NCBI GenBank assembly: GCA_020058145.1 | Contig: JAGVEP010000409.1 | Coordinates: forward strand, 1 to 34,741 | DNA length: 34,741 bases | Direction: 5' to 3' | From: Phycisphaerae bacterium | GTDB taxonomy: Bacteria > Planctomycetota > Phycisphaerae > UBA1845 > Fen-1342 | Shown: positions 8,121 through 34,334 of the stretch, piece after piece | How the letters are laid out: the number at the start of each line of letters is the position of its first letter | Numbering within the stretch: the first letter of the stretch is position 1 | The notes under the pieces: generated by a model | Database searches by the model: none | Told to the model about the DNA's origin: nothing | The model's input: only the letters and a program-made list of their open reading frames with translations | Translations under genes and position numbers: made by a program

Positions 8121-8993
8121 CTATCGGTCGCTGGACTCCGCCGTGAGCTCGAACCACTCCCCCTTCCGCCGAACGGACACCACCGGCGTTTCCAATTCGT
8201 GGTCGAAGGCGTACAGGCCGTCCCGTTCCGCGAGCCAGGTGAGCATTTGCTGTTTGGAGGCCCGGTTGTCGAGCGGGTACAGGTCGTAAGCCATGTTATA
8301 GGCGGCCCCGAGATGGTGTCGCGTGGGCATGAGGTCGCCGCCGAAAGCGAGCACGCGATCGCTGCCCTGCACGGCGATGGAGTGGTGTCCGCGGGTGTGT
8401 CCGGGCGTGGGGAGCGTGTGGATGCCCGGAGCGATTTCGGTGGCGCCCTCGATGACGCGCCAGGCATCGGCTGCACAGAGCGGCGAGTAGTTCTCCGCGC
8501 GATACGTGGCGGTCATGATGCCGAAGTTCGCGCAGGCGTCGTCGAGTTCGGGCTTGTGTACGTACACGCGGGCGTTCGGGAAGGTCAGTTTCAGTTGGCC
8601 ATCGGCGTTGTGGGTCAGCCCGCCGGCGTGATCGAAGTGCAGGTGCGAAACCACGACATCGGTGATCGACGCCGGGTCCACCCCCAGTGCCAGCAGGTTG
8701 GGCCGCAACCAGCAAGTGGGGTCGAGCGCGAAGATGTTCTGCTCTTTGGGGGTGTACTTTGAGCCGTGGCCGGTTTCGATCAGCACGCGGCGGTCGGTGC
8801 CCGGGCGCTCGACGAGCAGGCAGTTGCAAGCCAGCAGAATGCGATTCTGGTCGTCGGCGGGGTAGCTGCGGGACCAGAGCGCCTTGGGAATCAGGCCAAA
8901 CATGGCCCCGCCATCGAGCTTGAACTGGCCGCCGCTCACGAGGGTGACGGTGCAGTTGCCCAGGTCGTAGCGGGGCGGTGGGTTCGCCTGCAT
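8121..8993 (-). CDS. MBL-fold metallo-hydrolase
   Basis: Motifs include HLHFDHAGG (HxHxDH) and a later HTPGHTRGH. Start taken at ATG 8993 (MQANPPPRYDLGNCTVTLVSGG...). The ORF also opens at GTG 9032, so the start is uncertain. Confidence 0.8.
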   Translation of the reverse strand: MQANPPPRYDLGNCTVTLVSGGQFKLDGGAMFGLIPKALWSRSYPADDQNRILLACNCLLVERPGTDRRVLIETGHGSKYTPKEQNIFALDPTCWLRPNLLALGVDPASITDVVVSHLHFDHAGGLTHNADGQLKLTFPNARVYVHKPELDDACANFGIMTATYRAENYSPLCAADAWRVIEGATEIAPGIHTLPTPGHTRGHHSIAVQGSDRVLAFGGDLMPTRHHLGAAYNMAYDLYPLDNRASKQQMLTWLAERDGLYAFDHELETPVVSVRRKGEWFELTAESSDR

Positions 8994-9033
8994 AATGCTA
9001 ATGATATCCGACTGCCACGCTGGAGGACGCACT

Positions 9034-9570
9034 TTGACACTCGCGAAATCGCCGCTGGATATCCGCGGCCTGTGCCTCGATGTCGATGGTGTGCTGACCG
9101 ATGGGCGGCTGTCGTGGGACGACGCCGGCCACGGCGGCCGGCAGTTTCACGTACACGACGGGTTTGCGATTGACTGGTATCAGCGGCTCGGCGGCGTCGT
9201 GCTCATTTGCTCGGGCAAGACGTCGGAGGCCGTCGCCGCCCGGGCCCGCGAGCTGAAGATCCAGCACATGGTCCAGGGCAGCCGCGATAAGGTGCGCGAC
9301 GTGCAGGCCCTCATCGCGCCGCTGGGGCTGCGGCTCGACCAACTCGCGGTGATGGGCGATGACTTGCCAGACGTGCCGCTCATGAAGGTCTGCGGTTTTC
9401 CGATCGCCGTCGCGAACGCGGTCGATGAGGCCAAGGCCGCCGCACGGCTGGTGACGCGCCGGGCGGGGGGCGACGGGGCCGTGCGCGAGGCGCTCGAGCA
9501 CCTGCTGAGGCTGTCCGGGCAGTGGGCCGAGGTGCTGGCACACTACGGGATAGGTACCCAAGGAACGTAA
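9034..9570 (+). CDS. kdsC: 3-deoxy-D-manno-octulosonate-8-phosphate phosphatase (HAD superfamily, KdsC)
   Basis: Motifs LCLDVDGVLTDG (HAD motif I), FHVHDGFAI, SGKTS, GDDLPD and RRAGGDGAVRE follow the E. coli KdsC pattern. The ORF opens at ATG 8995, but GGAGGA (9022-9027) followed 6 nt later by in-frame TTG 9034 looks like the better start. Confidence 0.8.
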   Translation: MTLAKSPLDIRGLCLDVDGVLTDGRLSWDDAGHGGRQFHVHDGFAIDWYQRLGGVVLICSGKTSEAVAARARELKIQHMVQGSRDKVRDVQALIAPLGLRLDQLAVMGDDLPDVPLMKVCGFPIAVANAVDEAKAAARLVTRRAGGDGAVREALEHLLRLSGQWAEVLAHYGIGTQGT

Positions 9571-9660
9571 CGTCGGACTCGGAGGTCCGACGCTACTATG
9601 CCGTCGGACTCGGAGGTCCGACGCTACTATGCCGTCGGACTCGGAGGTCCGACGCTACTG
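9571..9660 (+). repeat. Three head-to-tail copies of a 31-bp unit carrying a hairpin core (CGTCGGAC-tcggag-GTCCGACG); REP-like element, family A
   Basis: The unit cgtcggactcggaggtccgacgctactatgc occurs at 9571-9601 and 9602-9632, and as cgtcggactcggaggtccgacgctactg at 9633-9660. The array starts 1 nt after the kdsC stop and ends 34 nt before ATG 9695. Confidence 0.9.
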
Positions 9661-9694
9661 GACGCGCCGCGCGCGTCAGGCGAGGATTACCCGT

Positions 9695-12600
9695 ATGGCG
9701 CGAAACATCGTCCTGGCTGTCGCCACGCTGGCGGTCCTGGTGCTCGTGTTCGTCGGGTATGGATTGCTCGTCGGCACGCCGGCCGCGGAACACGCCGACC
9801 GGCGGGGTACCGAGCCGGTCCCACGGCACGAGCCGCCCACAACCGCACCGCTGAAGGTCGGCGACATGCTGACCATCCCCGCGGGCGGCAAGATCATGTT
9901 CCGCCGCTATGACGACAAGACCGGCCGGCCGCGCGACATGTTCCTGTGCCGCGATTGGCAGCCGGTGCCCGGCTCGAAGAACGAGATCCGCGTCGCGCAG
10001 CCCGAGTTGGCCATTCGGCTGCCCAGCGGCATGATCGCCACGATCTCCGCCGAAGAGGGACAAATCACGGTCGATCGGCTGGAGGAATCGCAAATGCGGC
10101 CCAAGCTCGGCCGCCTGGCCGGCGACGTGCGGATGGTGGTGGACCGCGATACCGGACTTGACCGCTCGCCTAAAGAGGAACGGCCTGAGGACCTGATCAC
10201 GATCGCGGTGCCGCAACTGACGTTCGATCTCGAGATCGGGGAGCTTAAGACAGACGATCACATTACGGTCGTTTCTGACGACTTCGAGATCGCCGGCGCC
10301 GGCCTGCACCTCATCTGGAACCAGATGGCCAATCGGATTGAGACCTTGACCATCGAGCGCGGCGAGCAGTTCGTGCTCTACGGCGCCGCGGGGCTGTTCG
10401 GCCTGCAACCCGGTCGCGAAACGGGCGAGACCAGCACGTCTGAGCCCGCCACCGCCCCGGCGGAAAAAGCCAAGCACCGGCAGCCCAGACGACCGCCGCG
10501 CCCGGCGACGGCGTATGATTGCCTGCTTACCGGCGGGCTCGTGGCCGAGCAATACCACGGCAGCGAGCGGGTCGGCGGGCTGGACGCGGACGAGGTGCAC
10601 CTGCTGTTCGACGTGGGCGGTGCCAACCGGCTGGTCAGGGCCAAAACCCCCACGACCACGGCACTTGGCGCGCACGGCGCGTCCAGTAGCGTCGGACCTC
10701 CGAGTCCGACGAGCCGCCCGGCGCGCGAGGAGCGTGATCGGCTGGTCGTACACTGGACCGGCAAGCTGCAACTCGGTCCGACGGAACCGCCGGGTGCGGA
10801 CGAGCCGCCGCGCCGTCGCTTCGAGGCGGTGGGGAACCCGGTCGTGCTGACGCGCGGCGATGGCACGGTGCGCTGCACCAAGGTGGTTTACCACGACGAC
10901 ACGCGGCGTGTGTGGCTCTATCCGACCGCTGGCGGCACGGTCGAGTTCGGCATGGGAGCGAACCTGTCGGCGTCGGCGGAGAGCGTGTTCATCGACCGCA
11001 ATGCGCGGATCGCCAAGCTGATCGGCAACGTCGAGTTGCGCTCCCGCCACGGCGGGACCCCGGCGGCCCGCGTTTCGTCGATCCGTAGCTCTTACTGGGC
11101 GGAATTGCACTTGGCTGAGTCGGCGGCCACCGGCGAAGTTGCCGACAGCGGTGCGCTGGTGGACGTGGGGCGGCTCGAGTCGGCCACGTTTGTCGGCGAC
11201 GTCCAGGTGGTCCTGAACGAGCAACTGCTCACGGCGCACCGGCTCGACGTGACGTTCAAAGCCGACGCCGCCGGGCGGTCGTTCGAGGAATCGCTCGATG
11301 GCGCGACGGCGAGCGGCAACGTGGTCCTGACCAGCGGGAAGGGACGGCTGGAAAGTGGCGAACTGGACCTGGCCTTCGCGCTGGCGCCCGAGCGCGGTCT
11401 GTATCCACGCCGGATGGACGCCCGTGGCGACGTGGTCATTCACCGCGACCGGGCCAGCATTCGCGGCGAGCATATTTCGGCCGAGCTCGAGCCGCCGCCG
11501 GCCGAGTCCGCTGACAAGCAGGCCGCGTTCGTGATGCGTACGCTCAGCGTGCGCGGCGATGCGGAGCTGATCGACCCGGATAACAAGACGGCGGCACGTG
11601 GACAGGAGATTACCGCCGAGTTCGAGGGACTGAATCGGCTTGCCACCGCGACTGTGAGTGGCGACGAGTCGCAACCCGGCTTGGTACACGCCCGGCCCTA
11701 CACCGTCAGCGGGAGGAAGGTCGAATTGGACCGCGGCGCGCAGACCATACACGTGGACGGTCCGTCGCGCCTCGCGCTGCGCACGCAACGAAGCCTGCAG
11801 GGCGAGCGGCGCGGCCAGCCCGTGCCGGTGATCGTCACGAGCGACCGCCTGCTGCACATCGACGGCCGGCGAAACACCGTCCGCTTCGAAGGCAGCGTGG
11901 TGGCACGCAGCGAAGAAGAGGAGCTGCGCGGAGACACCCTGGCGCTGCTGCTGGAAGATGTCGCCGACACCGCCGCGCCGGAATCCCGGCCCGCGTGGCA
12001 GGAGGCCTGGCACCAGATGCGCCGGGCGCTCGGCGCGGCGGACAAGCAGCGCTCGTCCGACGACCTCTTCGCGCTGCAAGCGGAGGATGAGCGCGAGAAG
12101 CTGCGCAAGGAACCCGTCCGGCTGACCGCGGACAACGCCCTCGTCACCAGCGAGACGTTCGAGGCCGGCGACGAACAGCCCGTGATGCACGCCAGCATCT
12201 CCGCCCCGCGGCTCGAGGTCGATATCGTGAGCCGCGAGATCATCACCACCGGCCTGACCGACCTGCTGATGACCGATCGCCGCGGCGTGCAGGATGCGGA
12301 CGCCGCCCGCGACGCGCTCGGTGTGCCGACCGCGCTGCTCAGCCGCGGACCGAGCCAGTCGGCCATCCGCTGCACGGGCCGCATGAGTTACACGCTCGGG
12401 CCGGACGGTCCGGACCGCCGCGACACAGTGATATTCGAAAACCAGGTCGTGTTTGTACACCGCACGGGCAAGGAGATGGTCAACCTGGCCGAGATGCTGC
12501 CGCAGGTGACGCAGAAGCCGGAGCTCCTCGATGCGCTCAAGAGCCGCAACGCCGCGCTCGATTGCGACCGGCTCGAGTGCTGGTTTGCGGTCGATCAGAA

Positions 12601-12916
12601 CGATCACACTCCGCGGCGTGGCGGAGCGTTGACGCGGGCGCCTCTGCGGCTGGCGTCGATGCTGGCGTCGGGCAGCGTGTACTTGCGGGACCAACAGGAC
12701 CCGTTGATTCGCGAAGTCAACGCGGGCTGGCTCGAGTTCAGTCGGGAGCAGAGCCGGATTCACGTGCGCGGCACGCCAGGGGCGGACGCCCGCGTGTACT
12801 CCCAGGACAAGAAGACCGGGCTGTTCGACGTACACGCCGGGCCGCAGCTCGTCATCAACCTGGCGGACGGGACGATTCGGTCGGATCGGATTGAAGGGGA
12901 AATGCGGAGGAAGTAG
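9695..12916 (+). CDS. Large membrane-anchored periplasmic protein with multiple OstA/LptA/LptC-like beta-jellyroll repeats (candidate fused LptC-LptA bridge protein)
   Basis: ATG 9695 lies 8 nt after GAGGA. The N-terminal TM anchor reads MARNIVLAVATLAVLVLVFVGYGLLVG. G-[NDS]-V-hydrophobic strand motifs recur with the periodicity seen in OstA_N domains: AGDVRMVV, IGNVELRS, VGDVQVVL, SGNVVLTS, RGDVVIHR, RGDAELID, EGSVVARS, ENQVVFVH, SGSVYLRD. The gene sits immediately downstream of kdsC. The ORF-track start at 9629 lies inside the repeat array. Confidence 0.6.
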   Translation: MARNIVLAVATLAVLVLVFVGYGLLVGTPAAEHADRRGTEPVPRHEPPTTAPLKVGDMLTIPAGGKIMFRRYDDKTGRPRDMFLCRDWQPVPGSKNEIRVAQPELAIRLPSGMIATISAEEGQITVDRLEESQMRPKLGRLAGDVRMVVDRDTGLDRSPKEERPEDLITIAVPQLTFDLEIGELKTDDHITVVSDDFEIAGAGLHLIWNQMANRIETLTIERGEQFVLYGAAGLFGLQPGRETGETSTSEPATAPAEKAKHRQPRRPPRPATAYDCLLTGGLVAEQYHGSERVGGLDADEVHLLFDVGGANRLVRAKTPTTTALGAHGASSSVGPPSPTSRPAREERDRLVVHWTGKLQLGPTEPPGADEPPRRRFEAVGNPVVLTRGDGTVRCTKVVYHDDTRRVWLYPTAGGTVEFGMGANLSASAESVFIDRNARIAKLIGNVELRSRHGGTPAARVSSIRSSYWAELHLAESAATGEVADSGALVDVGRLESATFVGDVQVVLNEQLLTAHRLDVTFKADAAGRSFEESLDGATASGNVVLTSGKGRLESGELDLAFALAPERGLYPRRMDARGDVVIHRDRASIRGEHISAELEPPPAESADKQAAFVMRTLSVRGDAELIDPDNKTAARGQEITAEFEGLNRLATATVSGDESQPGLVHARPYTVSGRKVELDRGAQTIHVDGPSRLALRTQRSLQGERRGQPVPVIVTSDRLLHIDGRRNTVRFEGSVVARSEEEELRGDTLALLLEDVADTAAPESRPAWQEAWHQMRRALGAADKQRSSDDLFALQAEDEREKLRKEPVRLTADNALVTSETFEAGDEQPVMHASISAPRLEVDIVSREIITTGLTDLLMTDRRGVQDADAARDALGVPTALLSRGPSQSAIRCTGRMSYTLGPDGPDRRDTVIFENQVVFVHRTGKEMVNLAEMLPQVTQKPELLDALKSRNAALDCDRLECWFAVDQNDHTPRRGGALTRAPLRLASMLASGSVYLRDQQDPLIREVNAGWLEFSREQSRIHVRGTPGADARVYSQDKKTGLFDVHAGPQLVINLADGTIRSDRIEGEMRRK
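10664..10711 (-). repeat. Inverted copy of the family A element plus 20 nt of the 9661-9680 leader, embedded in frame inside the Lpt-like CDS
   Basis: 10664-10711 (cttggcgcgcacggcgcgtccagtagcgtcggacctccgagtccgacg) equals the reverse complement of 9633-9680 at 45/48 positions. It is translated as LGAHGASSSVGPPSPT. Confidence 0.9.
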
Positions 12917-12944
12917 CGAGTGGCGAATAGCGAGTAGCGAGTTG
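12913..12944 (+). repeat. Tandem ~7-bp TAGCGAG-type repeats (about 4 units) just downstream of the argS stop, overlapping the stop codon of the Lpt-like gene
   Basis: The sequence gTAGCGAGtgGCGAATAGCGAGTAGCGAGttg is present. The 21-nt core at 12923-12943 recurs at 14926-14946 (20/21). Confidence 0.75.
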
Positions 12945-12955
12945 CTCCAACTCGC
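12937..12955. terminator. Small hairpin between the convergent Lpt-like gene and argS
   Basis: GCGAGTTG-ctc-CAACTCGC forms an 8-bp perfect stem. The loop is only 3 nt and there is no U-tract, so terminator function is uncertain. Confidence 0.3.
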
Positions 12956-12977
12956 CGCAGCGATTCGTGACTCGTCG

Positions 12978-14912
12978 CTACATTCGCTCGATCACCTCAA
13001 TCCCCAGCAGCCCCAAGCCGAGTCGCAGGGTTCGGGCCGCGAGGTCGCAAAGCCGCAGCCGGGACAGCCGCACCGCGTCGTCTGCGGCGAGCACCGGGCA
13101 CGATTCGTAGAAGCGCATGAAATCGGCCGCCAGTTCGTACAAGTAGGCACACAACGTGTGCGGCGTGAGGTTGCTCGCCACGTCGTCGATGGCCTCGCGC
13201 AGCCGTGCAAGGCGCAGGGCCAAGGCGCGTTCCGTGGGGTGGTCGAGGGCCAGTTTCACGTCCGGGGCATACACATCCGCCGTGCCGCCGCGGTCGACTG
13301 CCTTGCGGTAGATCGAGCGAATGCGCGTGTAGGCGTACATCATGTACGGGGCGGTATTGCCCTGCATCGCGAGCATCGTGTCCCAACTGAACACGTAATC
13401 GCCGTTGCGGTCACGGCACAGGTCAGCGTATTTCACCGCCGCGATTCCCACCCGCCGGGCGATATGGCGTCTTTCGTCGTCAGAGAGTGGCGCCGCGATT
13501 TCCCCCGCTTCGTGCCTGCGTGCCTCCGTGCCTTCGTCCCTGCTGCGAAGCAGCTCATAAGCCCGCGCTTCCGCCTCAGCGAGCAACTCCCGCAGCTTGA
13601 CGTTTTTCCCGTCGCGGGTCTTGAGCGGCCGACGGTCGCTGCCCAGCACGCTGCCATAGGTCACGTGCTCGACGCTCACGTCCGGCCCGACCCAGCCGGC
13701 CAGCCGTGCGCACTCGAAGAACATCTGGAAGTGCAGCTTCTGGCGGGCGTCCGTGACATAAATGACCCGCTGGGCGCCGCGCCCGGTCGGAAATTCCAAG
13801 TCGCGCAGGCGGAAGCGAATGGCCGCCAGGTCCGTCGTCGCGTACAGGTACGCCCCGTCCGACTTCTGAATGATCATCGGCAGATGACTGCCGTCGGGGG
13901 CCTTGAACCGCGGCTGGCCCTGCTCGTCGTACATGAACACGCACACCGCGCCCTGGTCGTCGCGCACTTCGGCCCGGAGACTGTCGCACTGGCTTCCAGC
14001 CGGTGAAAGCTCCTGCCTGAGTCCTGCCACGAGCGGTTCCAGGCGATCGTTGTAGAAGCTCTCGCCGCGCACGTCGTCCGGCGTGAGCAGTACCCCTAGC
14101 CGTGCGTAGATTTCCGTGAACGCCCGCCAGCTCTCGGCACAGATTTGCTGCCAGACGTGCCGGGCGACGGGGTCGCCGGACTGGAGCTGTCCGACGCACA
14201 GCCGGGCCTCGTCGGCAAAGGCCGGGTCCTGCTTAAACCGCTCTTGGGCCGCCCGGTAGTCGTTCTCGATCGCCTCCAGCACGTCGCCGTGCGTCGCGGA
14301 CGTGGGCAGCGGGTGCTCGCGATACCAGCGAATGAGCATGCCGAATTGCGTGCCCCAATCGCCGATGTGGTTCTGGCGGATCACGTCGTGCCCCTCGAAG
14401 GCGAGCGCGCGGGCGAACACGTCGCCGATGATCGTGCCGCGGAGATGCCCGACGTGCATCTGCTTGGCGATGTTGGGCTGCGAATACTCGACCACGACCC
14501 GCAGCGGTTGGGTCACCGGGGCCAAACCCACACGGTCGACGGGCGCGTGGGAATGTGGGAACGTGGGAACGTGGGAACAGAGTTCCGGCGCCGGAATCTC
14601 CGCCAAATGCCGTGCCAGAAACTCATTCCGCAGCCGAATGTTGATGAAACCCGGCCCGGCAACCTCCAGCGGCTCTACCACGTCGCCGAGCAGCGGCTCG
14701 ACGGCGGCCTTGATCCGCTCCGCGACCTCGCGTGGCTTGATCTTGAGGGTCTTCGCGAGCGCCATGGCGGCGTTGCACTGGTAGTCGCCGAACTGCGGGT
14801 CGCCCGCGAGCCGCAGGCCGGCGTCGGCAGGCACGGCCGTGGTACCCGCCACCTGCGCAAGCGCCGCGGCGAAGCGGGTGGAGAGCATTTGTTGCAGACT
14901 GTCGTGTTTCAT
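12978..14912 (-). CDS. argS: Arginine--tRNA ligase
   Basis: Motifs: HIGH motif region SQPNIAKQMHVGHLRGTIIGD, a KMSK-equivalent PLKTRDGKNVKL, a DALR anticodon-binding region, and the typical C-terminal ...LGLLGIEVIERM. Start taken at ATG 14912 (MKHDSLQQMLSTRFAAALAQ); the ORF-track start at 15053 adds an Arg/Pro-rich extension. Confidence 0.93.
   Translation of the reverse strand: MKHDSLQQMLSTRFAAALAQVAGTTAVPADAGLRLAGDPQFGDYQCNAAMALAKTLKIKPREVAERIKAAVEPLLGDVVEPLEVAGPGFINIRLRNEFLARHLAEIPAPELCSHVPTFPHSHAPVDRVGLAPVTQPLRVVVEYSQPNIAKQMHVGHLRGTIIGDVFARALAFEGHDVIRQNHIGDWGTQFGMLIRWYREHPLPTSATHGDVLEAIENDYRAAQERFKQDPAFADEARLCVGQLQSGDPVARHVWQQICAESWRAFTEIYARLGVLLTPDDVRGESFYNDRLEPLVAGLRQELSPAGSQCDSLRAEVRDDQGAVCVFMYDEQGQPRFKAPDGSHLPMIIQKSDGAYLYATTDLAAIRFRLRDLEFPTGRGAQRVIYVTDARQKLHFQMFFECARLAGWVGPDVSVEHVTYGSVLGSDRRPLKTRDGKNVKLRELLAEAEARAYELLRSRDEGTEARRHEAGEIAAPLSDDERRHIARRVGIAAVKYADLCRDRNGDYVFSWDTMLAMQGNTAPYMMYAYTRIRSIYRKAVDRGGTADVYAPDVKLALDHPTERALALRLARLREAIDDVASNLTPHTLCAYLYELAADFMRFYESCPVLAADDAVRLSRLRLCDLAARTLRLGLGLLGIEVIERM
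13511..13542 (+). repeat. Four tandem 8-bp units inside argS (CGTGCCTN type)
   Basis: The units are cgtgcctg|cgtgcctc|cgtgcctt|cgtccctg. On the minus strand they are translated within ...RSRDEGTEARRHEAGE..., a variable segment of ArgS. Confidence 0.85.
14547..14578 (+). repeat. Four tandem 8-bp units inside argS (GTGGGAAY type)
   Basis: The units are gtgggaat|gtgggaac|gtgggaac|gtgggaac. On the minus strand they are translated as ...CSHVPTFPHSHAP..., just N-terminal of the catalytic core (VVVEYSQPN...HVGH). Confidence 0.9.
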
Positions 14913-15122: not shown

Positions 15123-17384
15123 ATGGTGACGGTCTGGTGCATCGTCGTTTCTCTCGGATCATTGTTCTTCTTCGGATTACCGCTCGCGGCGTGGGTTGCT
15201 CGGCGCGACGAAGAGGGCGAGACCGAGACGGCGTGGCTGCTCGCACCGTTTCTCGGGCTGTCCATCATCGTCCTCGTGCTCCAGAACCTCGTGTATCTCG
15301 ATCTCCGCGTCGCCACCACGACGCCGTGGCTGTGGGGCGCGGGTGCGCTGCTGGTGCTGCTCCTCATCCTGTCCGGGCGATGGCCCCAACTCCGTAAGGC
15401 TTTCCCGCGGGATGTTTTCCTCTGCGCGCTGCTGGTCTGCGGCGTCCAGTCGGCGGGCCTGCTGATCCGCGGCGTGGACCAGTACGTAGGCAGGTTGTGG
15501 ATCGATCAGTTCACCTACACGGTGACCGCTCAATTCCTGTTGGACCAGCCGTTTAGCCTGACGTCCGAACAAGTGGGCGATCAGCCACACCTCTATAAAG
15601 CGCTGCACATCAAGCACGACCGCATTGGACAGTCCATTCACCACGCCTTCGTGGCGGCTAGTTGCGGACTGGACGCCAAACGGACCTTTGAACCCGCCAT
15701 CCTGTCGGCGTGTTTCCTCAATGTGCTCGCGCTGTTCCTACTGGCCCGCCGCGTCACCACTCGGCGCATGGCGGCCCTGTTGGCAGCCGTCGGCGGCGGT
15801 CTGCTGCCCGCCATCGCCCAAGTGCATCTGGAGAGCTTTCACTCGCAGATGCTGGCGATGCCGCTGATGTTCGCCTGGCCGGAGCTGCTTCACCGCCTGC
15901 TGCACACGCGCCGATTGGTCTGGCTGCTGCCGACCGCGGCGGTCGGCGCAGCGATGGCGAGCATCTACACCGATTACGTACCGCTGTTTGTGGGTGTCGC
16001 GGCCGTGGTCCTGGCAATCGAGCTGATTAAGCAGCGGACGTATGTAGTCACCCGCTGCGGGCTCTGCGTTGCAGTGCTTGGCCTTGCGGCGGTGCTGAAC
16101 ATCGGCTACGTCACCGACCTGACGCGGATCGTCTTTGGACGGCTGACCCAGGCGGGGGTGCTGCCCGCCATTTACCCGTGGGCGCTGCGCGGGGAGGGGC
16201 TGGCGCGCCTGTGGGTGGGCGACTTCGTCGAGGCCTGGACGGCTGGTACGCCGCGTTGGCTGGCCGCGGGAGCACTGGTGCTCACGGTAGGATTGGTGGC
16301 CGGCATCCTGTTCGATATCTGGCGGCGGCGTGACCCGGTGCTGGTCGGCGCCACGGCCCTGCTCATGTTGCCGGCACTGCTCGCCACCCGCGGGCAAGTG
16401 TACGCGTATCAGTTCTACAAGATTCTGCTGTCGGTGTGTCCGCTGCTTCCGCTGGGACTTGCGGCTTGGCATGGGGCCATCGAGGCGCGCACTACACGGT
16501 GGGGGACCGCCACCGGCCGTCTGCTCAGGGGTGTCGGCCTGGGCCTGGCGGTGATCGTTGGCGCTGCAACCACCGTTATGACCGTCCGCGCCGGGGTTGG
16601 GGAGACCGTGGCCGACATCGGCCGAGGCTTCGCGGAACACTTGCGCTACCCCGACATCCGATACCTCTGTGACTATCTCTCGCGCTTGAAAGGCGAGGAC
16701 GTTTTTATTCACAACGGCCCAGCCGTGGTCAACGGTTGGCTGGCCTACTTTGCGCGCGAGGATCGAGTGTGGCTCGGCTATCCGGAAATCTCGGACATCA
16801 GCATCGCCAACTCGCCGGGCGGGAACGTGACCTGTGCCAACCTCCCCGCGAACTTGAACGTCATCGACAGCGGCGCTCAGTACGCCTGCGGGCTCTTGTC
16901 TTCCGGCCCGTTCTTCCCCGACACGCGCACCGAATTGAAGGCCCGTGTTGATCCATTCTGCATTTGGGAGCTCCGTCGCCCGGATTGGCTCATGCTCCTC
17001 GAATGCCGATGGGGATACGGCCCCGGCGAGATAGGCAGTCACGGCTTTTGGTGTGGCGACAAACCAATCGTCATACACTTCCTGTCACCCAGCGCGGGCG
17101 AGGCGCGCATCGCCCTGCGTCTCGACGCAGGTCCGAATCTTCCGGATCCCACACGCTGTCGCTTACGCATCACGACGAACCGTGGGTACGATGCGACTGT
17201 TCCAGTTTCGCTGCCCGCGTCGATCGAGTTGCCGCTGCGCTTGGAGCGCGGTAAGACGCTGGTCACGATTACCGTCGACGATGCGCCGCGGCCCGGCCCG
17301 GCCGCGCCCGAAGACCCGAGGACCCTGATGGCCGCCGTACTGGAGATGCCGCGGTTCGTCTCCTGGACCCCTGACGCACCGTAG
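15123..17384 (+). CDS. Polytopic inner-membrane protein (>=10 predicted TM helices) with a ~270-aa C-terminal soluble domain. It is a candidate GT-C-type glycosyltransferase or glycan polymerase; function is uncertain.
   Basis: 753-aa ORF with GAGGAG 10 nt upstream of ATG 15123. Hydrophobic helices run through ~aa 480, with an acidic patch RRDEEGETE after TM1. The gene lies in a glycan-export locus. The function is inferred from topology and context only. Confidence 0.6.
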   Translation: MVTVWCIVVSLGSLFFFGLPLAAWVARRDEEGETETAWLLAPFLGLSIIVLVLQNLVYLDLRVATTTPWLWGAGALLVLLLILSGRWPQLRKAFPRDVFLCALLVCGVQSAGLLIRGVDQYVGRLWIDQFTYTVTAQFLLDQPFSLTSEQVGDQPHLYKALHIKHDRIGQSIHHAFVAASCGLDAKRTFEPAILSACFLNVLALFLLARRVTTRRMAALLAAVGGGLLPAIAQVHLESFHSQMLAMPLMFAWPELLHRLLHTRRLVWLLPTAAVGAAMASIYTDYVPLFVGVAAVVLAIELIKQRTYVVTRCGLCVAVLGLAAVLNIGYVTDLTRIVFGRLTQAGVLPAIYPWALRGEGLARLWVGDFVEAWTAGTPRWLAAGALVLTVGLVAGILFDIWRRRDPVLVGATALLMLPALLATRGQVYAYQFYKILLSVCPLLPLGLAAWHGAIEARTTRWGTATGRLLRGVGLGLAVIVGAATTVMTVRAGVGETVADIGRGFAEHLRYPDIRYLCDYLSRLKGEDVFIHNGPAVVNGWLAYFAREDRVWLGYPEISDISIANSPGGNVTCANLPANLNVIDSGAQYACGLLSSGPFFPDTRTELKARVDPFCIWELRRPDWLMLLECRWGYGPGEIGSHGFWCGDKPIVIHFLSPSAGEARIALRLDAGPNLPDPTRCRLRITTNRGYDATVPVSLPASIELPLRLERGKTLVTITVDDAPRPGPAAPEDPRTLMAAVLEMPRFVSWTPDAP

Positions 17385-18605: not shown

Positions 18606-19536
18606 GATTCACGGCGCGGCTTTGGCCGTCCTGCGCAGCAATCGGCACTGCGACATTCTCGACGACGCTACCTTCTGCCGCCGGGCCGGGGAGTACTCGC
18701 TTGTGGTCGTTCCAGAGCAGGGCGAGCTCTCGGATGCGGTCCTCGCGACACTGGATCGTTTCGTCCGACGTGGCGGTGGACTGGTCGTGTCGCTGCCATC
18801 CGGTCTGGAAGGGGCGGATTGCGAGCGACTGCTGGCACCGTCCGACCAGAACGCAACTCCGGCACGAGTAGCGGTCCAGCCAGCGCTCGCGCAACTCCTG
18901 CCGCTCGAACCGGTCCGCCAGGTGTGGACCGCGGCTCGGATGAGCACTCCGGCCGGGCCTGTGGGGGTGCCGGCCGGTTGGTTCGAAGTGCAGCGGCGTG
19001 GAATGGCGTCGGACCCTGCTGTGCCGGCAGACCTGGGCGTGGTGACCACGCCATCGGCCGACAGGGGTTGGCCGGGACAACTGCATTTTCCCGTTGAACG
19101 GGGACGAGTCGCCGTGTTTACCGCCCCGGTGTTTCGGAGCTTCAGTGAGGGTCCCGACCCGCGCTTGCGGGCACTGATTGACGGTGCGCTGGAGTGGGCG
19201 CGCGGTCGTGCTGCGCCGCTGCGTGTGGTGGCCCCCCCGTGGATCGAGGTGAGTTGGCGGCGGTCGGCCGAAGGTGAGATCATTCACCTGGTGAATCACG
19301 CCCGGGGCTCCGAGGCGCGTCCCCGCAGCCCGGTCGTTGAGTACGTTCCTCTGGCCAACCAGGTGCGCGTAGAACGCGAGCTGCCGCGGCCACCGCGGGC
19401 GGTGCGCTTGGTTCCGTCGGATGCCGGCGAGATACACAGCGAATGGGCTGACGGTCTATTGCGCGTGACGTTGCCTGCCGTTGCGGTTCACGCCGCGCTG
19501 CTGCTCGAGTGGTCGGAGCCGGAGAGTCAGCCGTGA
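18598..19536 (+). CDS. C-terminal part of the glycoside-hydrolase-like protein (GH42-trimerisation/GATase-like domain + beta-sandwich). It is either a separate gene starting at TTG 18598 or the continuation after a +1 frame change near 18567-18579.
   Basis: The coding-like sequence in this frame begins at about ...HAHFDRTHRLDEIHGAALAVLRSNRHCDILDD...YSLVVVPEQGELSDAVLATLDRFVRRGGGLVV. This is paralogous to LLERLQYAVVLLDE...CLIVPNPTFYPVKLWRRLQGYVERGGRLIVV in 19533..22106. The part of the ORF upstream of 18570 looks non-coding. Confidence 0.6.
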   Translation: MDEIHGAALAVLRSNRHCDILDDATFCRRAGEYSLVVVPEQGELSDAVLATLDRFVRRGGGLVVSLPSGLEGADCERLLAPSDQNATPARVAVQPALAQLLPLEPVRQVWTAARMSTPAGPVGVPAGWFEVQRRGMASDPAVPADLGVVTTPSADRGWPGQLHFPVERGRVAVFTAPVFRSFSEGPDPRLRALIDGALEWARGRAAPLRVVAPPWIEVSWRRSAEGEIIHLVNHARGSEARPRSPVVEYVPLANQVRVERELPRPPRAVRLVPSDAGEIHSEWADGLLRVTLPAVAVHAALLLEWSEPESQP

Positions 19537-22106
19537 GAGTGAAGATCGTTGTGGCCGCGGTGTTCGGCTGGTATCTCGCCGGGTTTGGCACCGCCCAACC
19601 GGCTACCGAGTCCTGCCGGGCCGAGTTGCAGGTCCAGCCTTGGCACGCCCATGTCGTGGTTGCGGGTGTGCCCGCGGAAGTCGCTCGGCAACTGTGCTCG
19701 ACGACCAGCATGTTCCCCGGACTGCGTCCCGAATGCCTGATCCTGGCCGATGCTGAGCCGGTAGCACGCGTGCCGCTCGCGGAGGACGGACAACTGCGGT
19801 TTTACATCGCGGCCAACGTTGTCCGGGATCGGACGAGTCTGCTGATTGAGCTGCGGCCTTCCGCAACACAGGCGCCCGACGGCCGCCCGCTCGCCTGGTC
19901 ACTGGCCATTCGCGGATGTGAGGCCGTGCAGTACGTTCGCCAGTCCTATACGATCGACATTGGACACCCGGGAGATGTGCCGTACGTCGGGAGCGGTTTT
20001 TCGTACCAGGAAGGCGCACAGGCGCGGCAGCCGGCGTGGGCGCACGATGCCGATTTTCGCTGGTCGCGCCCGGGCTGCCGTCTGCGCGTGCCCGTCGTGC
20101 CGGGGAACAGCCATACGATCACGCTTTTCGGCGGCGTCCCGGTTGGTTTTCGAGTCCTGAGCAATGAGCGGGAGTTGGCCCGCTTCGAGCGCGCCGCGAC
20201 CAGCGGCTCGTATTCCTTCGACGTAGCACCGGAGGTTACGGCTGACCGCGCCTTTCTCGAAATGACGCTCGTGAGCCTGGACCCAATGCCGTTGCCGAAT
20301 CTCGACCTGCGCGAGCTGTTCTGGGCCCTGGACAGAGTGACGGTCGAGACCTACGGGCCCGGCGGTGTTCTGGACGTTTCGGCCTTGCCGGCCGCCGACC
20401 TGGCGGACGCGGCGTTCCGGGCGGCACTCTCGGTCGATGATGAGGCGCCGTCTCCAGTGCCGGTTGCCCTTCGGGCACGCTGGGACTTGCCAGCGGGCTA
20501 CAAAACCGTCGCCCAAATGCAGCAGGAAGTCGCGACCGTTCTCGCACACGGCGGCGCCTGGTTCCCCGCCGCAGACACGGAGCCCGCGGATACCGCGTAC
20601 GTGAGCGCGCAACTCCTGACTCCTCTTTGGCGGATGACCGGGACGTTGAGCGCCCCGCAACGAGGAGAAATGACCGCCGATGTGGGGATTCTCATCACGC
20701 GCAGCCAACGCCGCGCCGCCCGCTTGCGGCCGAGTACGTCAGACCCACTGCTTCAATCCGCACGCGGAGCCATGCGACTCCTCGAGCGGCTGCAGTACGC
20801 GGTGGTACTCCTGGACGAGTATCGGCTGCCCGAGGATGGCTCCGACCTACCCTGCCTCATCGTGCCCAACCCGACTTTTTATCCGGTGAAGCTCTGGCGG
20901 CGCCTGCAAGGCTATGTGGAGCGCGGCGGCAGGCTGATTGTGGTGGCCAATCTCAGTCTCCCCTTCGATCAGGAGCCCGCCGTCCGCGCGCTGCTCGGGG
21001 CCGTACCCAGGTCCTACGAGCGTGGTCGGTTTCGCATTCCCGTTGGAGACGTCGAAGTTCCAGTCTACAACAACGATTGGCAGGCCGTCCTGGCTCTCGA
21101 TGCCGCTCAGTTACTGTTGCCGCTCGCGCCGGCTACAGGAAGCGGGGGGGAGACTCCGGTGTGGCCGGCGGTGTGCCGGAGGGAATTGGGGTCGGGACGG
21201 GTCGCGACCTTGGCGCTGGATCTGTTTCGTGATTATGAGCGCTATTCCAGCCATCTGTACGCGGACGTACTGCACCATGTTCTCGATCAACTGGGTGTCA
21301 CGCGGGCGCTGGCGATCCACGGAGCTCCCAGCGTCGTTCTCACGCGGGCAACCCGCGCAGACGGGTTGGCCGTCTACCTCACCAACGTGGCCCGCGGCCA
21401 TTACGACTCGGGTGGGCTGATGAACGCGGCTTGCACGGCCATCTTCGCGGATGCGATTCCGCCGACGCCGCCGGTGGAACTCACGTTGAAGTGCGCGACG
21501 CGTGTCGCGGACGTGAGTTTTGTGCCGCCGGACGCCGCCGCCGTCTGGAAGTGGAGCGACGGGCTGCTCGACATCACCACTTCGTCCATCGCGATCCAGC
21601 AGGCGATCGTGGTCCGCACCGACGCCTCGCCTGCCACGCGGGTGCTCTCCTTGCCAGCGGGTTTGCCCGCCGACGTGCCCCTGGTCAGCATCGCCGAGTC
21701 AGTCCGCGCGGACCTCGGTCTGGTTCCGCCGCTACAGACGCCGTGGCCAGTCGAGAAAGTCGAACAGCGCCCGCTCCTGTGGCTCGGCACCGGGCCGGCG
21801 GAGGGCCTGACGTTCAACGTGGCCTGTGCGCACCCCCGCAAGTTCCTGCTGCGCATCGAGGCGGCCGCCGGACACGGACGTACCGATTTCCTGCGCCATC
21901 TCGTGCTCACGCGCGACGGCGAGCCCGTCTGGTCTGGCACCCTGGAAAAATCGGCGGTTCTGAGCGCGAGCCTGGAACTCGGTCCGGGCGAGCACCGTAT
22001 GTGCTTGTACTGCACGGACGAGGCCACCGTGCTCAAACACCCGAACGGCGACACACGCAACCTGCTCGTGGCCCTGCGCGGCGTGACCGTTACGCTGACC
22101 CCGTAA
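19533..22106 (+). CDS. Secreted large protein paralogous to 17421..19536 over its central and C-terminal domains (glycoside-hydrolase-like accessory/GATase-like domain); function unknown
   Basis: GTG 19533 overlaps the upstream stop (GTGA, 19533-19536). The signal peptide reads MRVKIVVAAVFGWYLAGFGTAQP. Paralogy blocks are KTVAQMQQEVATVLAHGG / KTAVQLAQEAATVLANGG and WSDGLLDITT / WADGLLRVTL. Confidence 0.7.
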   Translation: MRVKIVVAAVFGWYLAGFGTAQPATESCRAELQVQPWHAHVVVAGVPAEVARQLCSTTSMFPGLRPECLILADAEPVARVPLAEDGQLRFYIAANVVRDRTSLLIELRPSATQAPDGRPLAWSLAIRGCEAVQYVRQSYTIDIGHPGDVPYVGSGFSYQEGAQARQPAWAHDADFRWSRPGCRLRVPVVPGNSHTITLFGGVPVGFRVLSNERELARFERAATSGSYSFDVAPEVTADRAFLEMTLVSLDPMPLPNLDLRELFWALDRVTVETYGPGGVLDVSALPAADLADAAFRAALSVDDEAPSPVPVALRARWDLPAGYKTVAQMQQEVATVLAHGGAWFPAADTEPADTAYVSAQLLTPLWRMTGTLSAPQRGEMTADVGILITRSQRRAARLRPSTSDPLLQSARGAMRLLERLQYAVVLLDEYRLPEDGSDLPCLIVPNPTFYPVKLWRRLQGYVERGGRLIVVANLSLPFDQEPAVRALLGAVPRSYERGRFRIPVGDVEVPVYNNDWQAVLALDAAQLLLPLAPATGSGGETPVWPAVCRRELGSGRVATLALDLFRDYERYSSHLYADVLHHVLDQLGVTRALAIHGAPSVVLTRATRADGLAVYLTNVARGHYDSGGLMNAACTAIFADAIPPTPPVELTLKCATRVADVSFVPPDAAAVWKWSDGLLDITTSSIAIQQAIVVRTDASPATRVLSLPAGLPADVPLVSIAESVRADLGLVPPLQTPWPVEKVEQRPLLWLGTGPAEGLTFNVACAHPRKFLLRIEAAAGHGRTDFLRHLVLTRDGEPVWSGTLEKSAVLSASLELGPGEHRMCLYCTDEATVLKHPNGDTRNLLVALRGVTVTLTP

Positions 22107-31407: not shown

Positions 31408-31453
31408 CCGGGTGGCCTGGGCGTCCCGCCCCGGGTGGCATGGGCGTCCCGCC
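31408..31453 (+). repeat. Tandem 23-bp duplication at the 5' end of the VKOR-DsbA gene
   Basis: ccgggtggcCtgggcgtcccgcc (31408-31430) and ccgggtggcAtgggcgtcccgcc (31431-31453) match at 22/23. The single C>A difference creates ATG 31440. Confidence 0.9.
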
Positions 31454-33422
31454 CGTGAACACGACGGGCAAGATGCCCGCAGTACCCATCGGCCGCGCGA
31501 TTCGCGTGTTGGGTGCGATCTGCCTCGTATTGTGCGTCGGCGCTGCACTCGCGCTCGTGCTCGAGCACCTCGTCGGGCTGCAACTGCCCGGCTGCGGGGC
31601 GGGCAGTCCCTGTGCGAAGGCCAGCGCGAGCGTTTGGGGCAAGGTGCCGTACATAAACTGGCCGGTTTCTTTCCTCGGACTCGCGTATTTTCTGGGTTTG
31701 CTCGTGGCTTGGCTCGCCGCGCGCGGTAGCGTGTCCGGTGCCGCGCGTTGGGTGATCCGCCTCGGCCTGCTGCTGTCGCTGGGGTTCACAGTCGTCATGT
31801 TCGCAGGCGGCTACGTCTGCCCGTACTGCCTCGCGACGCACGCTGGGAACTTGGTCTTCTGGTTGTGCATGGAATTCGGCACCCGTGCCGCACCGGTGGG
31901 TCGCCGGCCGCTGACGGCGCTGGTGGCCGTCTTCGTGTTGTGCTCCGCGGTGCTCGGTGGCGCCGAATGGCGCGGCCGCGCGCGGGCGCGCACGACCGCG
32001 GAAAGGGAAATGCAAGCGTCCGAGGCCGCCATCTTGTCCGCGTCGACGCAGCCCGATGCGGGCAGCAGCGACAAGAACGAATCCGTCAATACCGCGCCGA
32101 GGGAAGCCGTCGCTGAGGCGGGGGTGCGAGAAAGGATTCTCGCACCAGCCGCCGTCGCTGAGGCGGGGGTGCGAGAAAGGATTCTCGCACCAGCCGCTGG
32201 GGTGCGAGAAAGGATTCTCGCACCAGCCGTTCTCGCACCAGCCGCGGGCTTCACCGGGCGCTGGCGGCTCGGTCCGGAGGCGGCCCCCATCCGAGTCGTT
32301 CTGTTCATGGACTACCAGTGCAAGGGCTGCCACCTCATTGAGCTGGAACTCAAGAAGATCATGGAGCAGCACCCGGACATTTCCCTATCGGTCAAGCACT
32401 GGCCGGGGGGCTCGGAGTGCAACCCCAACCCAGCCGAGCGTGAGCACATCTACGCATGCGCCGACGCGCGCGCCGCTGAGGCCGCCGGCATCCTGCACGG
32501 CAACGACGGCTTCTGGAAGCTGCACTTTTGGCTCTTCGGCAAGAGTGGACGCGCAACGGATGCGGACTTCCGGGCGGCCTGCGCCGAGTTCGGTTGGGAT
32601 GCCGACGAATTCGACCGCGTCCGCCACAGCGACGAAACCCAGCGCCGGATCGAAGCGGATGTCGTCGAAGGGTTCAGCTTGGGTCTCTCCTCCACGCCGA
32701 TGGTTTTCATTAACGCCGTCGAATTCAAGGGCTGGGCGGCGCCGTTGGGGCTGACGCGGGTCGTGGACGCCATCAGCCAAAAGGACCTGCCCGCCAAGAC
32801 GGCGGCGAGTGACCGTGCCATGCCGGCGAAGGAGTCGTTCATATTCCAATGGCGTCAGGCGAAAGCTCGCGATCTGCCGGCGACCGCACAGGCCTGGCCG
32901 CGCGGGCCGGCCGCCGCCAAGCTCAAAATCGTCGTCTGGGGCGACTACCAGCAGCCCAACACGGCCCTGGCGGACCGCATCATTCGCGAATTCAGCGCCG
33001 CGCGGAGCGACGTGCAGTACACGTTCCATCCCTACCCGCTCAATCGGGGTTGCAACGTCTCCGCGAAGGAAGACGAGTACCCGTCGGCCTGCCGCGCCGC
33101 GCACGCCGCACAGGCGGCCGGTCTGCTGGCCGGGGCGGACGGATACTGGAGAATGCACGACTGGCTGCTGAAACACCAGGCGGATTTCAGCGACGACACA
33201 CTACGATCCGCGGCCGTCGAGCTGGGCCTCGATCCCACTGAGTTGTTTTCCCGCATGGACAACCCGGCGGTCAGCGCCGCGATCGCCGAAGTGGCCCTCG
33301 CCGGCAGTCAAGCCGGGCTCCAGCACAGTCCGCTGATGTTCCTGAACGGCAAGATCGTGCCCCGTTGGCTGCACGGCAAGGAACCCGTGTTGCGGGCGAT
33401 CCTTGATGCCGCCGCCGAATGA
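31440..33422 (+). CDS. Vitamin K epoxide reductase (VKOR) membrane domain fused to two thioredoxin/DsbA-like domains, the second lacking CxxC
   Basis: VKOR: GCGAGSPCAKASASVWG...CPYCLATH within TM helices. Trx domain 1: FMDYQCKGCHLIE...ECNPNPAEREHIYACADARAAEAAG. Trx domain 2: WGDYQQPNTALAD...GCNVSAKEDEYPSACRAAHAAQAAG. The start may instead be ATG 31473 (MPAVPIGRAIRVLGAICLVL). Confidence 0.82.
   Translation: MGVPPVNTTGKMPAVPIGRAIRVLGAICLVLCVGAALALVLEHLVGLQLPGCGAGSPCAKASASVWGKVPYINWPVSFLGLAYFLGLLVAWLAARGSVSGAARWVIRLGLLLSLGFTVVMFAGGYVCPYCLATHAGNLVFWLCMEFGTRAAPVGRRPLTALVAVFVLCSAVLGGAEWRGRARARTTAEREMQASEAAILSASTQPDAGSSDKNESVNTAPREAVAEAGVRERILAPAAVAEAGVRERILAPAAGVRERILAPAVLAPAAGFTGRWRLGPEAAPIRVVLFMDYQCKGCHLIELELKKIMEQHPDISLSVKHWPGGSECNPNPAEREHIYACADARAAEAAGILHGNDGFWKLHFWLFGKSGRATDADFRAACAEFGWDADEFDRVRHSDETQRRIEADVVEGFSLGLSSTPMVFINAVEFKGWAAPLGLTRVVDAISQKDLPAKTAASDRAMPAKESFIFQWRQAKARDLPATAQAWPRGPAAAKLKIVVWGDYQQPNTALADRIIREFSAARSDVQYTFHPYPLNRGCNVSAKEDEYPSACRAAHAAQAAGLLAGADGYWRMHDWLLKHQADFSDDTLRSAAVELGLDPTELFSRMDNPAVSAAIAEVALAGSQAGLQHSPLMFLNGKIVPRWLHGKEPVLRAILDAAAE
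32106..32243 (+). repeat. Tandem array (45+45+33+15 bp) of a hairpin-containing unit (GTGCGAGAA-agga-TTCTCGCAC) inside the VKOR-DsbA ORF; family B
   Basis: The unit gccgtcgctgaggcgggggtgcgagaaaggattctcgcaccagcc occurs twice (32106-32150, 32151-32195). Truncated units follow at 32196-32228 and 32229-32243. All lengths are multiples of 3. Translation: AVAEAGVRERILAPA x2, AGVRERILAPA, VLAPA. Confidence 0.92.
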
Positions 33423-34272: not shown

Positions 34273-34299
34273 CCGTCGGACTCGGAGGTCCGACGCTAC
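34273..34299 (+). repeat. Single copy of the family A hairpin element
   Basis: ccgtcggactcggaggtccgacgctac is identical to the core of the 9571-9660 units and in the same orientation. It lies in the 5' leader of the downstream gene. Confidence 0.9.
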
Positions 34300-34334
34300 G
34301 CCTGGGGCCTCAGGCAATAGCGAACTACGGAACC

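Follow-up and report, generated by a model that had tools for sequence, protein, structure and literature searches.

Templated copying of a leader repeat as the probable origin of a long inverted repeat in a Phycisphaerae Lpt-like gene

How does a gene come to carry, within its own coding sequence, a 48-nt inverted copy of its leader, and does such an arrangement serve a function? This question is raised by an Lpt-like gene of 1073 codons (9695-12916, forward strand) in a 34,741-nt stretch of DNA, hereafter the window, from a Phycisphaerae bacterium (GTDB UBA1845; Fen-1342; assembly GCA_020058145.1, contig JAGVEP010000409.1, forward strand, positions 1-34,741). A first-pass annotation of the window had described the two arms, and we tested the inverted repeat with a repeat search and with a direct comparison of 9633-9680 against the reverse complement of 10664-10711. 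The direct comparison confirmed that these forward-strand segments are reverse complements at 45 of 48 positions, with mismatches at arm positions 38, 44 and 47 and a perfect run of 37 nt; the repeat search returned arms at 9633-9678 and 10666-10711 (46 nt, 96% complementary, 987 nt apart). Bracketed by the arms is a segment of 983 bp (9681-10663) that holds the ribosome-binding site (RBS) and the start codon. The left arm consists of the third unit of an array of repetitive extragenic palindromic (REP) sequences followed by native leader sequence, and it is the donor template for the right arm. When chance expectation was taken from shuffled sequence, a 27-nt pattern comprising the REP and CTACT had five matches in the window (0 expected) and the 21-nt extension had two (0.04 expected), so the similarity of the arms is not due to chance. 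With the other two leader units, too, the REP part of the right arm shares a perfect match of 27 nt.

Comparison with orthologs demonstrated that the right arm is a 42-nt insertion together with target sequence on its two sides, 4 nt and 2 nt, over which the match to the donor continues. The insertion (10668-10709, forward strand) is in frame, adds a net 14 residues and is the reverse complement of leader positions 9635-9676 at 40 of 42 positions; this donor stretch joins the promoter-distal REP unit of the spacer to the initial ~15 nt of the native leader hairpin. Residues 323-338 of the Lpt-like protein now read LGAHGASSSVGPPSPT, as given in the first-pass annotation, which had correctly noted that the intragenic copy is read through in frame. 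The annotation had also suggested looking for the internal copy in orthologs, and two protein alignments, with 15 and with 63 sequences, showed LGAHGASSSVGPPS in the window protein only; these residues were lacking in 62 of 62 homologs, which, where a source is named, all come from Phycisphaerae/Planctomycetota. Against the closest relative, contig L001 (Lpt-like protein P0002; 90% amino acid identity, 88.6% nucleotide identity, 78% identity at third positions), the insertion is the sole gap across 1059 aligned residues, and the DNA alignment has one clean 42-nt gap at an empty site that reads CACCTG/CGAGCC (the slash marks the insertion point). The order of genes in L001 is syntenic with that of the window (sigma-54 activator, MBL hydrolase, KdsC-like, Lpt-like, argS), and its 22 kb contain no copy of the REP core.

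The same relative gave the direction of copying. The non-REP part of the arm (GGACGCGCCGCGCG.GTC.GG) is also found in L001, whose leader is free of REPs, at the corresponding position ahead of the RBS; therefore, copying went from leader to gene. The native leader segment GGACGCGCCGCGCGCGTCAGG (9660-9680, forward strand), with its small hairpin GACGCGC-CGC-GCGCGTC, is found there as GGACGCGCCGCGCGGGTCCGG, just upstream of the common GCGAGGATTA...ATG, and the spacer between the kdsC-family and Lpt-like genes ends in ...ctGGACGCGCCGCGCGGGTCCGGCGAGGATTAACGCATG in L001 and in ...CTGGACGCGCCGCGCGCGTCAGGCGAGGATTACCCGTATG in the window. By this sequence comparison, the non-REP part of the left arm is ancestral leader to which the REP array was later added upstream, and the intragenic arm copies both. 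At two leader positions that differ between the window and L001, the intragenic copy agrees with the window leader. At the three positions that differ between the arms, the leader agrees with L001, so all three changes are derived in the intragenic copy; all are transitions and all are non-synonymous (P>L, D>G, R>H). The first-pass claim that the match runs some 20 nt into leader-specific sequence also held, with this stretch found in the REP-free leader of L001 and missing from all other REP copies examined. Its further claim that one arm was copied from this very locus can now be given a direction, leader to gene, on the strength of the orthologs that lack the insert, the L001 leader and the flanks of other REPs. 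An 18-mer joining the REP to the leader extension was found at none of 108 loci, and among ~236 copies examined a unique flank common to a distant REP pair was seen for the window pair only, with no other copy carrying a foreign flank.

In our assessment the right arm is probably a mutational scar of a templated copy from leader into gene that was tolerated in a protein linker, the inverted repeat being a by-product with no dedicated function. Because 48 nt match but 42 were added, there would be 4 + 2 nt of junction microhomology (CCTG and CG). In the proposed mechanism, a nascent strand ending in ...CCTG would leave its template and re-anneal ~1 kb away on CAGG (9677-9680), on the complementary or on its own strand, beside the hairpin-forming REPs, which are plausible sites of stalling and switching. 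It would then copy 42 nt backwards through the leader hairpin and the adjacent REP, and return via the CG microhomology. The donor reverse complement reads CCTG-ACGCGC...GAGTCCGA-CG, to be set against the empty L001 target given above, and the Pro codon CCN at the target is kept in two further relatives (L106 and L107). By a rough estimate, the chance of six or more matching junction bases is ~0.003-0.004. The intermediate predicted by this mechanism would have the leader REP array together with the empty target site CACCTGCGAGCC. The two differences within the insert fall on the 1st and the 7th base to be made once the proposed switch had happened. An error-prone restart would account for them, and so, just as well, would substitutions at a later time or selection acting on the peptide. 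According to three studies (PMC8794818, PMC7954356, PMC7202029), template switching that produces inverted copies in a single event is established. Survival of the insert may be owed to its length, a multiple of three, to the stop-free and flexible Gly/Ser/Pro peptide that it encodes (..SSSVGPPSPT..) and to its position in a disordered linker of variable length.

The gene that received the insert probably belongs to lipopolysaccharide (LPS) transport. Its product has a Pfam LptD_N match (36.7 bits), an N-terminal membrane helix and, after it, a series of LptC/LptA-type beta-jellyroll modules; its orthologs in Phycisphaerae/Planctomycetota number 62. An AlphaFold2 model (mean predicted local distance difference test, pLDDT, 80.4) gave Foldseek matches to LptA (2r1a), LptC (3my2) and the N-terminal region of LptD, and the name "Lpt-like" is justified by these matches of the beta modules. 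Its true start is most likely ATG 9695 (9695-9697), since the N-terminus read from there aligns from residue 1 with all orthologs; an upstream ATG at 9629, within the repeat, is an unlikely start. The probable RBS, GAGGA (9683-9687, forward strand), lies with the start codon directly 3' of the left arm. The insertion site is a Pro/Ser/Thr/Ala linker between beta-jellyroll modules whose length varies by 0-15 residues across orthologs, and linker residues 310-339 of the model have a pLDDT below 50.

The donor sequence is part of a tandem array of three 31-nt REP units (9571-9659, forward strand), which Tandem Repeats Finder described as period 31, 2.9 copies and 100% matches, in agreement with the repeat search. 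Each unit consists of CGTCGGAC-TCGGAG-GTCCGACG followed by CTACT, so that the minus strand reads a GTAG head, and has a predicted 9-bp stem of -14.4 kcal/mol. The array begins at the base after the TAA stop (9568-9570) of a kdsC-family phosphatase gene, within the 124-nt intergenic spacer that we call the leader, and is missing from the orthologous spacer of L001. A fifth copy lies at 34274-34300 (forward strand), in intergenic DNA and with an unrelated 3' flank; five copies, all with the GTAG head, are the total seen in 34.7 kb. On these sequence features and those of related genomes, the repeat is a GTAG-type REP/REPIN element with a REP-associated tyrosine transposase (RAYT): the GTAG head, the inverted doublets and a flanked Y1 transposase match the defining features of such elements (Nunvar 2010, PMC2817692; Di Nocera 2013, PMC3733652; Bertels & Rainey 2011, PMC3116915). 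GTAG REPs in Planctomycetes and REPs inside genes have already been described (PMC3733652).

A genome scan with one genome per species found the 22-nt REP core in more than 104 stretches, most of them in the groundwater Planctomycetota metagenome-assembled genome (MAG) JACRLV01, with further carriers in CAZNFA01, CAYMXT01 and several Phycisphaerae MAGs. Counted singly, copies of the core in related Phycisphaerae/Planctomycetota MAGs exceed 160. In these other genomes CTAC, the GTAG head on the other strand, comes directly after 146 of 159 exact-core copies, and nothing is conserved beyond it. Adjacent copies form 21 inverted doublets, all in the "-+" arrangement and mostly 42-44 nt from start to start, and another 20 direct tandems. 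A 178-aa open reading frame (ORF) at L053:2199-2735 (minus strand, CAYMXT010000013.1) matches Y1_Tnp at 33.6 bits (cut-off 23), has the HUH motif HLHVL and carries REP copies on both sides (L053:1972-2830); the same MAG encodes an Lpt ortholog, P0003, that is 70% identical. Next to this RAYT-like gene, four REP units stand in tandem with a period of 28 nt. An identical core plus CTAC is shared by MAGs in which the Lpt-like protein has just ~70% identity to that of the window (e.g., CAYMXT01). Despite this perfect sequence conservation the distribution is patchy across the clade, as the lack of copies in the 22 kb of the 89%-identical L001 illustrates.

Some REPs belong to larger units. We observed ~12 copies of a longer, REPIN/MITE-like composite with a variant REP (CGCCGGACCTCCGAGTCCGGCG), a 23-nt spacer, a canonical REP and ~45 nt of conserved 3' flank (ctacgggagtggcgcgttcgaggggttttgcaccggactgcta); it occurs at L009, L015, L017, L032, L039, L043, L047, L073, L084, L086 and L105 (all CAZNFA01) and at L025 (DAOVQG01), while L097 and L101 have the conserved 3' flank only. 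At L009 the composite, a REP doublet, lies inside an ORF with molybdopterin-oxidoreductase domains, in a part for which no alignment to solved structures was obtained. In JACRLV01 a repeat, ...cagaaccccaagcgccagcgcgcggggcc..., stands directly upstream of many REPs in either orientation (e.g., L003, L010, L014, L035, L048, L065, L069, L099, L100), so that a REP in this MAG is commonly one component of a larger composite.

Intragenic REPs were called by a test of the phase of third-position G+C content (GC3), for which 103 clusters were evaluable. An earlier count of REPs inside long stop-to-stop ORFs, which scored 76 of 236 as "inside", was uninformative in high-GC DNA and was dropped in favour of the GC3-phase test. 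By this test, four of the 103 clusters lie in frame within coding sequence: those in the window's Lpt-like gene, in a TPPII-like peptidase (L088:1896-1917, CAYMXT010000196.1, between the TPPII and TPPII_C domains), in a ValRS-like gene (L083:3819-3840, CAZNFA010000046.1, with ~12 extra residues relative to orthologs) and, as a doublet, in a Fer4 protein (L022:1092-1158, CAZNFA010000002.1). TPPII orthologs are at most 54% identical, too divergent to tell whether the L088 REP is a net insertion. The three singletons (window, L088 and L083) are read on the GTAG strand and in one frame, ..S-V-G-P-P-S-P-T.., a hint that no frame but the one giving this flexible peptide is tolerated. In-frame REPs are a recurrent and tolerated feature of this family, as they are for other REPs and for the Rickettsia palindromic elements (RPEs).

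Several points weigh against a template switch as the origin of the right arm. The allele with the 42-nt insert is on a single contig. The CCTG microhomology is taken from relatives, with the L001 state as ancestral, and the window now reads CTTG, so one base of it is inferred. Template-switch mutations are typically short-range, over tens to hundreds of bases, and the distance here from donor to target, ~990 nt, is longer than such typical events, albeit within the size of a bacterial Okazaki fragment. That the insertion is neutral is deduced from its position. The reading frame shared with the other intragenic REPs agrees just as well with an origin in two steps, in which a canonical REP of ~27 nt (9 codons; GTAG head and palindrome) would have inserted in frame first, and break repair or gene conversion templated by the inverted leader REP would then have run 15 nt into the flank and been resolved at CCTG. 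The same-frame singletons in the TPPII-like and ValRS-like genes, the latter with its extra residues, are in keeping with such a history, as are the divisibility of both 27 and 15 by three and a right-hand microhomology of just 2 nt. It requires, however, two rare events at one site, and the intermediate allele is not seen, L001 having neither REP nor extension; we regard it as unlikely. Also unlikely, and a little more so, is aberrant mobilisation by a RAYT that attached to the GTAG hairpin of the minus strand, cleaved at some CT farther away and moved the REP with its flank to a CT-containing target. A REP-flanked Y1_Tnp protein with the HUH motif does exist in a related MAG, E. coli TnpA-REP cuts at CT dinucleotides possibly far from the hairpin and can transfer strands (PMC3479197), and the left junction has CT in both donor (GCCT/GACG) and target (ACCT/G). 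Yet the right junction (..GTCCGA/CG) is not at CT, a foreign flank occurs in no other of the ~236 copies, and domain scans of 25 long ORFs found no RAYT in the window. As for an assembly artefact in which repeat-containing reads were wrongly joined, the single metagenomic contig would allow it, and an exact-protein look-up found the Lpt-like product on record nowhere else. It is nonetheless very unlikely, because the insert is exactly in frame, stop-free and at 2/42 differences from its donor, with clean junctions in an otherwise collinear gene; moreover, in-frame REPs occur in independent assemblies of related MAGs. Of the three options offered by the first-pass annotation, neutral local dispersal of a REP-like element comes closest to the templated copy that we favour; where it falls short is in the inserted unit, a REP plus 15 nt of unique leader with junction microhomology, which points to templated copying and not to ordinary REP transposition.

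The other two options assigned the repeat a role in RNA or in DNA. The long-range RNA duplex is predicted on thermodynamic grounds: pairing of the arms is put at -107.7 kcal/mol, whereas the local hairpins have -27.2 and -25.2, and the minimum free energy fold of 9560-10730, in which a 47-bp helix occurs, gains 44.6 kcal/mol over the best fold with spans of no more than 600 nt. As a conserved regulatory feature it did not stand, for it occurs in no ortholog, including the 89%-identical one. One may suppose that a 47-bp helix in a kdsC-lpt transcript is kept for function, being cut by RNase III or blocking re-initiation and so tuning the level of the Lpt-like protein, and in addition to the predicted energies, two of the three DNA mismatches become G-U pairs in RNA and the left arm ends two bases before the RBS. 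Any recent inverted copy of 48 nt would yield such energies, however, and since about half of all transitions preserve pairing by chance, the G-U pairs are not significant. Furthermore, the right arm is in none of the 62 orthologs, with L001 also lacking the REP part of the left arm; an Rfam scan of 9000-11200 gave no match above threshold; and the local REP hairpins would form first, while ribosomes would cross the 983-nt loop and the right arm. The helix being absent from all relatives, there is no evidence of selection for it, and we consider this role quite improbable. If formed, the helix would more likely act as an RNase III-type substrate at which the mRNA is cut inside the coding region, a cost rather than a control. 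The invertible, phase-variable cassette was not borne out. Recombination between the arms would flip 9681-10663 and switch the gene off and on, and the geometry fits, with 48-bp arms, a 37-nt perfect run and 983 bp that include RBS and start. But domain scans of 25 long ORFs of the window found no recombinase, invertase, integrase or transposase, in agreement with the first-pass statement that no recombinase is present; two of these ORFs, of 753 aa (15123-17384) and 865 aa (19509-22106), had no domain matches at all. Gene calls of the syntenic L001 likewise lacked a recombinase, integrase or transposase. The right arm arose recently by templated insertion and in this lineage only, and a simulated inversion left codons 340-1073 (734 codons) without a start, because the downstream frame closes 18 codons upstream; inversion would only destroy a probable LPS-transport gene. 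The second orientation was not found either, though both metagenome scans, one with the 37-nt perfect arm and one with the window's Lpt-like protein, returned no matches at all. We judge a cassette to be extremely unlikely; it is conceivable that a rare RecA-dependent inversion over the 37-nt perfect run occurs, and this would simply inactivate the gene.

The templated copy of the leader resembles several known systems in part. As in GTAG REP/REPIN families, the repeat is a 22-nt GC-rich palindrome with a GTAG head, high in copy number and mostly intergenic, that forms inverted doublets with a ~20-nt spacer and direct tandem arrays, lies just past the stop of an upstream gene and flanks a RAYT gene in a related MAG. 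Unlike copies in those families, and uniquely among the copies examined, the intragenic one carries 15 nt of unique donor flank and is inverted 1 kb from its donor. The likeness to RPEs and to "REP-decorated" proteins (Di Nocera 2013) lies in repeat DNA that is translated in frame in a surface or linker region, is not present in orthologs and turns up in several of the clade's genes (those for the Lpt-like, TPPII-like, ValRS-like and Fer4 proteins). Here, in contrast to RPEs, the source of the insert can be traced to a specific neighbouring copy, and the insert, unlike a mobile unit on its own, brings with it 15 nt of non-repeat DNA specific to the leader. An RPE, at about 100-150 nt, is longer and inserts as a whole. 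Template-switch or quasipalindrome mutagenesis in the four-point model (PMC8794818, PMC7954356, PMC7202029) similarly writes the reverse complement of a nearby sequence elsewhere and leaves a perfect inverted repeat. Our locus shares with that model hairpin DNA at the donor and probably microhomology at the switch points (4 nt, with L001 as ancestral, and 2 nt). It departs from typical template-switch events in its jump of ~1 kb and in being a pure 42-nt insertion rather than a replacement. With fim/hin inversion switches the locus has in common that inverted repeats bracket a segment with expression signals, but it has no recombinase in the scanned ORFs, its arms are recent and accidental, and its inverted state is without functional read-out.

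A REP-associated templated insertion in a disordered linker thus joins known kinds of event (the GTAG REP family, the intragenic REP and the template-switch insertion) and is ordinary but instructive; it opens no new biological question. Its value lies in the visibility of donor, target, junctions and outgroup state for a palindromic repeat that seeded a templated insertion in an important envelope gene. A long inverted repeat that looks riboswitch-like or invertible can arise in a single mutational step, and inverted repeats that contain a dispersed REP therefore need a check against close relatives before function is proposed. The case also documents a Phycisphaerae GTAG REP/RAYT family with units that protein linkers have repeatedly accommodated in frame. 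A bolder proposal, that REP hairpins of the clade are recurrent donors and triggers of templated, in-frame VGPPSPT Gly/Ser/Pro linkers and that the 47-bp helix subjects the mRNA of an LPS-transport bridge protein to autoregulation or to decay by RNase III, appears improbable.

The upstream neighbour of the array, the kdsC-family phosphatase gene (8995-9570, forward strand), matches TIGR01670 at 126.9 bits (cut-off 106.95) and Pfam Hydrolase_3 and is syntenic in L001 and L108. Its position ahead of the Lpt-like gene recalls the E. coli kdsC-lptC-lptA cluster. A promoter and terminator scan of 8900-10900 returned nothing in the spacer. The Rfam scan placed CRISPR-DR29 on the palindrome at 26.2 bits, below the gathering score of 39, and this was taken as chance. 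Other ORFs of the window encode housekeeping proteins, sugar-nucleotide and polysaccharide enzymes, ArgRS, a sigma-54 activator and similar products. Between the convergent Lpt-like and argS genes are heptamer runs, AGTAGCG-like in the window (12912-12990) and GAGTTCT in L001 (L001:12437-12530); their position is shared and their sequences differ, and they form a long imperfect hairpin that is probably a bidirectional terminator. We rejected the AGTAGCG run at 12912-12942 as a remnant of a REP head, as L001 has a different run, GAGTTCT, at that place and both form a long hairpin.

In addition, the window contains a second palindromic family, GTGCGAGAA-AGG-ATTCTCGCAC, at 32106-32244, with perfect tandem units of 45, 33 and 15 nt. 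Its palindromes (32124-32145, 32169-32190 and 32202-32223) lie in a forward-strand ORF, 31440-33422, with VKOR, Thioredoxin_4 and DSBA domains, where they occupy residues 222-268, an interdomain linker, and are read as AVAEAGVRERILAPA repeats. Six further copies were seen in loci of related MAGs (L017, L022, two in L024, L057 and L059). At L022 the element is in frame (VRERILAPAVLAPA) directly after the REP doublet. At the start of the VKOR/DsbA ORF, a 23-nt unit (CCGGGTGGCATGGGCGTCCCGCC) occurs twice within 31408-31454, at 95% identity.

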